From: a virus
Lineage: Duplodnaviria; Heunggongvirae; Uroviricota; Caudoviricetes
Length of the DNA: 18,526 nucleotides
Reading direction: 5' to 3' (one strand)
IMG/VR virus record: IMGVR_UViG_2695420863_000007
Position numbers: made by a program
Part shown: piece after piece, positions 1 to 3,000 of the stretch
Layout of the letters: each line of letters begins with the position of its first letter
Position numbering within the stretch: the first letter of the stretch is position 1

Positions 1-3000
1 CGGCAACATCAGCACGCAGAGTTTCATTTTCAGCTCTCGCATCGGCTAATTCCCTCGAGTATCTGGCATCAAGTGCAGCGACATCACGCTGGCGTATCTG
101 CATATCAGTAATTGTCGCGTTCGCCAGCTCCAGCTCACTGGCTTTTTTATCGCGCTGCTCTTTGTAGATGATGGCGTGATCACGGTAATGATTCAGCCCC
201 AGACTAAGCGCACCACAGGCCACCAGCAGGACAATGATAACCACGCACAGAACACGGTTCATATCACCACCAACGGATTGCCCAGACCAGAACAGCAATG
301 GCCACAATACGAATGGCAAAAGCTGCCGCTCTTGTTAAATCCAGACTGGCTGGCGTCTCCACTTCAATGCCTTTCATAATGGACAACCTCAGAAAGAATC
401 TTTTATACTTCCTCACAGGGAAAGTACCTCCCTACCCATAATTTCTCCCTTGCCTTACTCAAGGTCAGAAAACACAAAACCCCGCTTGCTGCCAACAAAC
501 GGGGTTTTTACTTTTATTCACTTAGGTTTTACCAGTTTTCAGGATTTCGTGTTATCCACCCGCGTTGGCCAACGTCATTTTTCAGGAAAATATTCTGCTA
601 TCTGTCGATGTCCCAGCACGCCAGCGCGCTCTCCTGGTCACGCCGTGAGACCTGACCGTAGCAATTATTTGAACGGATACGGCAGTCTCTGCCACCGTCC
701 TTAATCCACCAGCGAATCGCCTCACAGGCACCTTTTCGATCGCCTGCATTAATTCGTTTATAAAACGTCGACGGGAAGCACTTACCGGGGCCAATGTTGT
801 ACGGACAGAATGACGCGATCCCCGCTTTCTGGGGTTCGGTCAGCGGCACCCGGATGTTTTTCTCCACCCATGCCAGAGCCTTGTCACGTTCGATGGCATT
901 AACCCGGTCGCATTTTTCCTTTGACAGCTTCATGCCAGGAATAACAGGCTTACCATCCACCAGAATGGCACCACGGCAGATGGTCCAGATCCCCGCACCA
1001 TCACGGTATGCCGTGGTGTGGTTACCTTCCTTTTCATCCAGAAACTGGTCGAGGATTTCAGGCGCAGAAGCACCTGCACCAATCAGCGCCAGAACGGCAG
1101 CCGACAGGCCGTATTTTATTTTTTCGTTCATGGGGATTTATCGATTTCTAATCCCTTGATATGTTAGGTATATAATCCAACACTCATGGTCGCTCTCATA
1201 AACATATCCCTTGAGACGCAGCAGATTACAACAAATGAAGCCATATAAATGAACAGTAAAGAAAGTTTGCGCAGAAGATTTTTACAACTAATGACAGAAA
1301 ACGTTAAATCAGAGTTACTTCTTCTGATGGCAGATAATAACGAAGCAACAAGCAGCATTCTTGCAGACCCTTACGGTAAGATCTCACATAAAACGCTGGA
1401 TATTATTACCACAACATTAACACCGCTGATGCTTCAACGGCTGAAACATAATATCAACGCATGGGTTAATGAAGAATTAAGTCCTCCCTGCTTATGGGAT
1501 TCTCGTTACGCATGTCAGCAAAAAATGCGAATTTTCAACTTACTATCACCAAAGCTCAGGTAGCCATAAAATCCTGCCCTTCATGGCATACAGGATTTCA
1601 ATGGAATCACAATGACCAACTCTTGCACAGCTGTATCCCTGACTCCCCGACAACTCAGATTTTCAGTATCTGCTGCTATCTAAAGAGAAAGCGCACAAAT
1701 GCAAGGGTCTTTCATCACGTCCTGTTATTGATTGCCTGTGACCTTTTCTTACCTCATGGAACGTTTTTTCAGTTAGAAATATTCATTTTACAACCAGTTC
1801 GTATTGTTTATTCATCGACTACTCTCCCCGCGCCACCTTACGCTTATCTTCTTTAATCTTGAAATAAAGGTTAGTCAGATACGTCAGCAGGCCAAACAGC
1901 AGACTCCCCAGCACACCGATTGCCACCCACTGGGACGGAGAGACTTTGTCCAGCAGCTGCAGTAACCAGTATCCCGTCCCCACCGCTGACGTGGTGTATG
2001 ACACACCTGTTGTGATTTTTTCCATCTGATGTATGTCTCCGTCACCGCCGACAGAAAATGAAAGTAAAGAAAAACAAAAAAACCGCCAGTGTCACCCACT
2101 GACGGCCAACTCCGGGAGCCGTGATTATGGCATTCAGGCTCTGCTAAAAATGCCAGATAACATTCCGGCCTCCCCTGATTCAGGTTATAAATGACACAAT
2201 ATCTTGACAACACCCGTCACTGTCTGTCAGAAAATATACCGCCAGGCATAAGTATCATGTGAAATCCAACTATCCTTCTGAGCCAGCACCTCTCCACCGA
2301 AAGTCAGTGCTGGCTGTTTTTTTCCTTAATAAAGCATCTGTAACTGAAACAATCCGCATATTGATAATATATTGACAGGCATCATTGCTGTCTGTGAAAA
2401 ATAAGTCTCTACAAACATATAAGGCCTTTTAGCCAGCGTCTTCTTTCAGGTCAGTCGCTGGCTCTTTTTTTATTATGCTGCCGGTGCATTTATCTCCAGC
2501 ACCAGACTTTCTATCTCAACGCCATACGCTGCATTTTTTGTAACATCCGTCAGCGTCAGCGCATTCAGTCCCAGTGTCAGACTGTCTTTTATAACCTGGA
2601 ATGCCGGGCCAGCCACTCCATTCAGTTTCGGAGTAACCGTGGCACTGCCGGCGGTGAACACCAGCTCCAGCGTCTGCCAGTCGTTACCGTAACCGCCGAA
2701 CTCCCCCAGCTTCGTGTTTCCGGCTTTCCTGTGATGCATCAGATTCACTCTGCCGTCAGTGGTCTGAGTGAAGTACGACATCAGGAACGGATTACCGGTA
2801 CCCGTCATCGCCACACCATCAGGAACGGGAGCATCCGTATACAGATAAATCCCCAGCCCGAACTGATTGTTGGTCAGTGCGCCTGACAGGCGGAACTTAC
2901 AGGTCAGTCTGCCGCCCTGTGTCAGCAGGGTAATTGCGTCATCCACCGGATGCGTCAGGGACCAGGTTTTATTGCTCTGCTTGGTGATCTTAAATACACC

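Follow-up and report, generated by a model that had tools for sequence, protein, structure and literature searches.

A PHROG 1853 gene antisense to the late operon in the holin-lysozyme gap of an Escherichia coli prophage, beside remnants of a YdfR-family gene

Introduction

Lambdoid phages can carry morons next to their lysis genes. The bor gene of phage lambda and the lc/nmpC porin genes of PA-2 and DLP12 each have their own promoter and are directed against the late operon, and the envelope proteins that they encode, Bor and Lc/NmpC, have known phenotypes in the lysogen. In phage 21 itself, the holin gene S and the endolysin gene R are adjacent. Here, we describe the gap between S and R in a lambdoid Escherichia coli prophage (IMG/VR record IMGVR_UViG_2695420863_000007; the whole analysed stretch of 18,526 nucleotides is termed the window) and the 104-residue open reading frame (ORF) located there on the plus strand. 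Considered together, the comparative data make it probable, with some reserve, that this ORF is an accessory gene of the moron type, transcribed from its own promoter against the late operon, and the survivor of a two-gene module of the S-R gap.

The ORF shares several properties with the described morons: like bor and lc/nmpC, it lies opposite to the late operon at the lysis cassette, is of foreign composition, and has a candidate promoter of its own. One of its homologues immediately precedes, in the same orientation, the porin gene of a prophage. In contrast to classical morons, the window ORF has a recurrent partner gene, no evident terminator, and a predicted cytoplasmic helical protein as its product.

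A homologue of the same family is found in phage 86 (AB255436), where orf6 encodes a protein of ~104 residues with 49-53% identity, in the same S-R position, on the opposite strand, and divergent from R. The partner gene of phage 86, orf5, is intact, and the S-R gap spans 1263 bp; in the window, two remnants of this partner, here termed X, are left in 687 bp. The upstream regions also differ, as a GC-rich hairpin with a T-run in phage 86 takes the place of the TATAAT and leader repeat of the window.

A second type of cassette, found in CP-933V-type phages and PhiR12_1, occupies the same slot with the same layout as the window module and has boundaries at 1100-1166 and 1780-1843 in common with it. 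Its small protein belongs to phrog_2572 and has no detected similarity to the window ORF, making it a positional analogue and not a homologue.

In K-12, the gene ydfR of the Qin prophage presumably lies between essQ and rrrQ. YdfR has 103 residues and is without the PHROG 1085 C-terminal domain; the window remnant corresponds to the first ten codons of the family. This DUF1327 protein is reported to bind the catalytic N-terminal half of RNase E and to co-purify with RNA (PMC13232886). Such an activity cannot apply to a ten-codon remnant, and RNase E binding is the sole functional clue, an indirect one that comes through the partner family.

Small self-contained units are also known from the same prophage neighbourhood, namely the Pas small RNAs (sRNAs) and the anti-sRNAs AgvB and AsxR. 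The window ORF is instead protein-coding and matches no RNA family. The Pas sRNAs PasA and PasC are located between sialate esterase and holin genes (bioRxiv 10.64898/2026.05.13.724894).

Results

The S-R gap contains a protein-coding gene

The gap between the holin and lysozyme genes extends from 1132 to 1818 (687 bp). Its GC content is 39.0%, as compared to 54.1% in the lysozyme gene and 51.7% in the holin gene, and GC at third codon positions is 37% in the plus-strand ORF versus 59% and 64% in its neighbours. The block thus has a composition unlike that of the neighbouring phage genes, which is one of the properties by which morons are recognized. The original prediction, made from the sequence of the window, had described an AT-rich block of ~690 bp splitting the holin-endolysin pair, a perfect TATAAT on its plus strand, and a 104-residue plus-strand ORF convergent with the holin gene; all three are present. 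The features of the cassette are:

598-1131, minus strand: endolysin gene R (lysozyme), 177 residues, PF00959 Phage_lysozyme, E 7.6e-24; RefSeq label 'lysozyme'
1132-1166, minus strand: R leader and left recombination boundary of the variable block, common to all cassette variants
1171-1176, plus strand: candidate -10 hexamer TATAAT, an exact match whose position is conserved in relatives
1194-1216, plus strand: inverted repeat TCTCA-N13-TGAGA in the ORF leader, ~18 nt downstream of the hexamer
1237-1240, plus strand: purine-rich GAAG resembling a Shine-Dalgarno (SD) sequence, 8 nt before ATG 1249, as read from the sequence
1249-1563, plus strand: PHROG 1853 gene, 104 residues, 12.1 kDa, pI 9.3, phrog_1853 E 3.5e-47
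1546-1742, minus strand: decayed C-terminal part of X with in-frame stops, YdfR family / PHROG 1085
1783-1815, minus strand: start of X, ten codons (MNKQYELVVK) and then a stop, YdfR/DUF1327 type, beginning 3 nt after the holin stop
1819-2025, minus strand: P21-type class II holin gene S (pinholin family), 68 residues, PF04971, E 1.9e-32

Residues 1-102 of the ORF align to positions 57-158 of the 159-position phrog_1853 profile, and the relatives P0008 and P0009 match this profile as well. PHROG 1853 is a phage family catalogued as 'unknown function'. A search of 5.8 billion proteins recovers full-length homologues of 104-109 residues with 64-79% identity and conserved N- and C-termini. An exhaustive HMMER profile search of 1.84 billion cluster representatives extends the range to ~21-41% identity and finds only 20 relatives, which marks the family as a small one; these are small proteins of the same family and length, apart from a spurious match to a HEAT-like repeat protein. 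The length of 104-109 residues is kept down to 21% identity (window ORF, P0003, P0005, P0007-P0009, P0018, P0020, P0022, P0024, and P0034). Two scans of one-genome-per-species contigs, with a pattern of limited sensitivity, found no relative of the ORF.

When six homologues taken from different contexts are aligned by codon, all indels are in frame, and dN/dS is 0.13-0.31 in all 15 pairs. By these codon-level comparisons, the 104-residue ORF is a genuine protein-coding gene under purifying selection. The original prediction was to be given up if the ORF lacked conservation or codon-level selection in homologous insertions and the block proved non-transcribed; conservation and codon-level selection are both found.

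The position of the start codon differs between annotations. In O157:H7 EDL933, the exact 104-residue sequence carries the label 'unknown protein encoded within prophage CP-933O', while RefSeq/PGAP lists a 90-residue 'hypothetical protein' (WP_000138558.1) that starts at 1291. The true start is likely ATG 1249, since residues 1-14 are conserved in homologues and the SD-like GAAG precedes this codon. Relatives have GAGG, GAGA, GAAGGG, or GAGGA at the same spacing, and nothing comparable lies upstream of ATG 1291. A five-codon upstream ORF (ATG 1236 to TGA 1253, with an ATGA overlap) was considered as a coupling device and rejected, the same bases being more simply read as the SD-like GAAG. Two longer frames, of 120 residues on the plus strand (1494-1856) and 64 residues on the minus strand (1164-1358), were also set aside as chance ORFs, as they match no family and run across either the selected ORF or the pseudogene.

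The protein is predicted to be soluble, all-helical, and cytoplasmic. An AlphaFold2 (AF2) model built from a six-sequence alignment has five helices at a mean predicted local distance difference test score (pLDDT) of 84.7, and no hydrophobic segment is present (maximum Kyte-Doolittle value for a 19-mer of 0.66). Neither Pfam (E <= 1) nor NCBIfam has a family for the ORF; the PADLOC defence hidden Markov models (E <= 0.1) match neither the ORF nor four relatives nor phage 86 orf5; and a profile search of PDB sequences returns noise, the best match being a designed protein at E 0.035. A literature search found no paper citing WP_000138558, and the literature on DUF1327/ydfR, phage 86 orf5/orf6, and prophage sRNAs provides context only.

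A convergent gene has decayed on the minus strand

The original prediction had found no convincing gene on the minus strand of the gap. No intact gene is present, and the longest minus-strand ORFs have 64 residues (1164-1358, antisense to the 104-residue ORF) and 35 residues (1546-1653). Two remnants of a decayed gene do, however, lie there. The first was recognized by megablast against phage genomes, in which only window 1786-1843 was matched, under the annotation 'DUF1327 containing protein | holin protein S'. Over 12 positions, the start of X at 1783-1815 and that of the DUF1327 protein of PhiR12_1 are 92% identical; the intact DUF1327 domain (PF07041) is absent from this remnant and present in intact relatives. 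The second remnant was located with tblastn, using the intact 213-residue X of locus L019. Residues 143-186 align to window 1742-1611 with 36% identity and two stops (E 4e-5), the C-terminal '...YLKGRI' aligns to window 1593-1570, and the 35-residue ORF at 1546-1653 is the tail of X.

Intact X proteins have 184-268 residues in the loci examined and up to 333 residues in the protein search. In phage 86, orf5 (268 residues) combines a DUF1327 N-terminus with a PHROG 1085 C-terminal domain; proteins of this kind carry the NCBI name 'YdfR family protein'. An AF2 model of X had a pLDDT of 48.3 and was unusable for structure search.

As the minus strand carries remnants of X, the block derives by deletion from a two-gene module and is not a clean insertion. 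The original suggestion of a cargo gene inserted into the lysis cassette therefore stands for the gene, which is conserved, codon-selected, and has a conserved candidate -10 hexamer of its own, and only in part for the insertion. The proposal to search the families of domains of unknown function known between ess and rrr genes had a similarly divided outcome: DUF1327 fits the minus-strand remnant, while the ORF itself matches no Pfam family.

The gap is a site of cassette exchange

The order S, X, opposite-strand ORF, R is found in Stx2 phage 86, Stx2a phage 12E129, and several E. coli contigs. In these relatives with P21-type holins, the stop codons of X and the ORF are 8-9 nt apart or the genes overlap by ~21 nt. 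The same convergent pair lies beside a lambda-S-type holin gene in L021 and L022 and beside an HP1-type holin gene in L020; in these distant phages, the ORF is 21-34% identical to that of the window and X is 33-40% identical to the E. coli forms. The original prediction had set the gap against phage-21-type cassettes with adjacent S and R. In every examined relative with a P21-type holin and a lysozyme, the gap is occupied, spanning 832-1263 bp, and that of the window is the shortest at 687 bp.

Among 79 IMG/VR loci, 53 are of the X-less window type, 25 have X, and one (L071) has none of the tested flanking genes. In the X-less loci, the ORF is 96-100% identical; 50 of these loci are flanked by R and the holin gene, and in three one flank is missing or undetected. 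In CP-933V-type phages, the same slot holds a DUF1327 gene and an unrelated opposite-strand ORF of 86 residues. The DUF1327/DUF1823-type cassette of PhiR12_1 resembles the window over 1100-1166, where the similarity ends, and the R-leader stretch is conserved in the alignment of relatives. The S-R gap is thus a cassette-exchange site, and the related prophages examined hold a late-strand YdfR-type gene together with a small opposite-strand gene.

The window-type block is nearly clonal, with 99% identity or more in 622 records. Matches over 80% or more of the query occur in 624 of 5,426 complete E. coli genomes (~11%), at one to four places per genome.

Three further observations concern the sequences around this site. 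In NZ_CP148405.1 (~203450-203549), only window 1564-1663 was matched (99% identity), under an annotated holin gene, which suggests another rearranged variant of the S-R gap. A GC-rich hairpin with a T-run (CAGCCCGYCAGTG...CACTGGCGTTTT) lies between the small ORF and the adjoining lysis gene in L018 (~3395-3425), L017, L019, L021, L022, and L084; it is conserved, and in phage-86-type upstream regions it replaces the TATAAT and leader repeat of the window. A minus-strand terminator at window 2081-2107 is very similar to this hairpin in the reversed orientation. Finally, a GGGATT...AATCCC hairpin (~1133-1155, minus strand) lies directly upstream of the R start codon, within the ~35-nt leader, and might affect R translation; the overall fold of the minus-strand segment that contains it is not significant when compared to shuffled sequences.

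The ORF is retained in loci without an intact partner

Over 743 bp, three sister copies (L067, L068, and L070) align collinearly with the window, and the X deletion is common to all of them. As compared to the window, their ORF differs by 2.2-3.5% and their intergenic and pseudogene flanks by 5.9-11.1% (Fisher p 0.003-0.009). Within the ORF, pN/pS is 0.11-0.15 (p 0.002-0.005), and substitutions are approximately three-fold fewer than in the flanks.

Copies outside working lysis cassettes point in the same direction. In L006 (5916-8024), an intact ORF precedes a serine-protease autotransporter gene, and in L007 (4317-4544), an intact ORF follows a PerC-family gene close to a fimbrial cluster. 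At both loci, the adjacent X is a stop-riddled pseudogene and ~30 nt of the start of R are left; these loci are decayed lysis cassettes. In L014-L016, the ORF is located between Q and a different holin gene, with the porin gene of a prophage downstream (L014 5711-6823), and no X was detected beside it. This porin-linked variant had no megablast match in complete E. coli genomes.

By sequence comparison, independent decay of X in several lineages can be regarded as established. Because the ORF is retained at X-less and decayed loci, its selected function appears to require neither X nor a working lysis cassette.

Candidate expression signals

The TATAAT at 1171-1176 is kept in seven of eight aligned relatives, including copies outside lysis cassettes, and is unchanged in the sister copies that have diverged by 5-7%. 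A hexamer is present at this fixed position in nearly all distinct window-type upstream regions, with TACAAT and CGTAAT as variants. A consensus promoter scan skipped the site because there is no acceptable -35 element upstream; what gives the hexamer its weight is its conservation in homologous cassettes, and that alone.

Downstream, the repeat at 1194-1216 is a candidate operator or RNA stem. In relatives it takes the form GTCTCA/TGAGAC, TGTCTCA/TGAGACA, or ATCTCATAA/TTATGAGAT, and L016 has one apparent compensatory change of G:C to A:T. As an RNA hairpin, the repeat is no more stable than shuffled sequences (z = -0.21).

Other features of the window

The early-right and late genes of the window are all on the minus strand, in the order replication O and P, Dam, antirepressors, NinG, phosphoesterase, Q, sialate esterase, holin, and lysozyme. 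The holin corresponds to Pfam Phage_holin_2_1 ('Bacteriophage P21 holin S') and carries the RefSeq label 'class II holin family protein'. From the sequence, the N-terminus of R has a weakly hydrophobic Ala/Gly-rich stretch that by eye resembles a signal-arrest-release segment. Further genes and RNA elements are:

2473-4323, minus strand: SASA/NanS-p-type sialate esterase
5859-6482, minus strand: antiterminator Q
9441-9524, minus strand: sRNA-Xcc1, at the Rfam gathering score
10029-10113, minus strand: C4 antisense RNA, at the Rfam gathering score
10140-10214, minus strand: isrK, at the Rfam gathering score
10175-10227, minus strand: c4-a1b1, at the Rfam gathering score
18051-18109, plus strand: lambda cIII thermoregulator, at the Rfam gathering score

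The spacer between the esterase and holin genes (2026-2472) contains two tandem plus-strand units resembling sRNA genes, within ~2200-2470. These have TTGACA boxes at ~2204 and ~2371, each with a stem-loop and U-run (~2281-2325 and 2431-2470, the second with z = -3.7). Their position is that reported for PasA/PasC, and they have no Rfam match. The minus-strand terminator at 2081-2107 in the same spacer is strong (z = -3.7). Between Q and the esterase gene, a minus-strand ORF of 172 residues (5104-5622) has no Pfam family and occupies the slot of tRNAs or stx genes in related phages; the surrounding DNA, including an AT-rich spacer at 4324-5100, has 33-45% GC. The window yielded no tRNA genes.

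Discussion

A probable moron-like survivor of a two-gene module

The proposed history of the locus involves: an ancestral convergent module; loss of one of its genes; and continued selection on the other. In the ancestral module, as exemplified by Stx2 phage 86 (S, orf5, orf6, R), X would have lain on the late strand behind the holin gene. A small gene of the opposite strand would have converged on it, with stop codons that abut or overlap. In the lineage of this prophage, X probably lost its middle and decayed, leaving ten N-terminal codons and a stop-riddled C-terminal stretch. The opposite-strand gene at 1249-1563 would have stayed intact, encoding a predicted 12-kDa, basic, soluble, five-helix protein of PHROG 1853.

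Transcription of this gene would likely start from its own sigma-70-type promoter, with the -10 at 1171-1176, and proceed against the Q-dependent late transcript. As the unit is antisense to that transcript, its transcription is expected to be independent of induction, and the protein would be made in the lysogen regardless of lytic induction, as with lambda bor. The protein may then act in trans, to a benefit that would need neither X nor a working lysis cassette. Lysis itself would not be interrupted, since late transcription, antiterminated by Q, would pass across the block and reach R. The ORF transcript may have an antisense side-effect on the late (S) mRNA.

Several observations weigh against this proposal. 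The window contains six copies of TATAAT, not above the 7.2 +/- 2.6 expected by chance; the putative promoter has no recognizable -35; and the consensus promoter scan made no call at 1171-1176. No intrinsic terminator follows the ORF: the promoter/terminator scan finds none on the plus strand over 1563-1818, and a hairpin at 1569-1598, just beyond the stop codon, lacks a U-run and is no more stable than shuffled sequence (z = -0.91). Sequence and fold similarity searches yield no functional clue for the protein. Because the window-type block is nearly clonal, its abundance may reflect hitch-hiking on successful prophages instead of selection on the gene. Last, the lasting linkage of the ORF to X and the lysis genes, even in distant phages, argues for an ancestral role tied to X or to lysis and against that of an independent gene of benefit to the host.

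Alternative explanations

This last point leads to the alternative in which the ORF is a dedicated partner of X: an antagonist, antidote, regulator, or lysis-timing modulator made in the lysogen or early in infection against leaky X. The ORF in the window would then be an orphan, kept by inertia or addiction. The convergent pair, with its abutting or overlapping stops, has persisted even as X and the ORF diverged to 33-40% and 21-34% identity, and it always adjoins a holin or endolysin gene, whichever the holin family. A late protein that, like YdfR, binds RNase E and RNA (PMC13232886) could plausibly need a brake. An antidote without its toxin should nevertheless decay, and purifying selection on the ORF continues in the X-deleted lineage; the ORF is also intact beside X pseudogenes in two further lineages, and X is undetected at the porin-linked copy. 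A role of this kind is accordingly rather doubtful for the window ORF.

A related and quite unlikely possibility is that PHROG 1853 and the YdfR-family protein form an unrecognized convergent regulatory module of lysis cassettes, from which the orphan has been co-opted as a host-acting factor. One possibility within this scheme would be a lysogen-expressed inhibitor paired with a late protein acting on RNase E or RNA. Such co-option is consistent with the homologues that adjoin porin, serine-protease autotransporter, and PerC-family genes.

The original prediction had also considered a regulatory or RNA locus affecting expression of R/Rz. In its developed form, a transcript from the TATAAT would continue across the X remnant as far as the holin gene, acting as an antisense or interference brake on leaky S and R in the lysogen; alternatively, the block would encode an sRNA. 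The protein would be secondary. In favour of this, the unit converges on the late operon, the stretch from 1563 to the holin gene has no convincing intrinsic terminator, and the opposite-strand Pas genes offer a precedent between sialate esterase and holin genes. The ORF, however, has synonymous changes far above non-synonymous changes per site, and its length and reading frame are kept to 21% identity. The sequence downstream of the ORF differs between cassette types. Rfam returns nothing for 1100-2520 at E <= 1 and nothing for the gap at the gathering score, and four folded segments (z -0.2 to -0.9) are no more stable than shuffled sequence. With these negative results and selection at the codon level, a function through RNA alone is highly unlikely, and this part of the original prediction is not borne out.

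A reading of the ORF as a frame open by chance within an AT-rich scar of recombination, and of the block as cassette-exchange junk, is hardly credible: the block does hold real junk in the X remnants, and the ORF has no Pfam or NCBIfam family and is a RefSeq 'hypothetical protein' with a different start, yet this account is contradicted by the PHROG 1853 match, full-length homologues in several contexts, dN/dS well under 1 throughout, and a confident AF2 helical-bundle model from six sequences.

Implications

The gene was already on record: hundreds of genomes, from EDL933 onwards, list it as hypothetical, and it is catalogued as PHROG 1853. For this reason it is a modest lead and no surprise. 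What is added here is that it is coding and still selected, and that it is the survivor of a recurrent convergent pair of the lysis cassette. The orphan is enriched in prophages of the type found in enterohaemorrhagic E. coli (EHEC), is carried by roughly one complete E. coli genome in nine, and sits in a region of EHEC prophages that is dense in lysogen-active elements, such as the NanS-p-like esterase and the Pas sRNAs. As things stand, this is an ordinary uncharacterised phage accessory gene. If its product acts on the host, on lysis, or on RNA metabolism, it would represent a widespread, uncharacterised factor of lysogenic conversion or lysis control.

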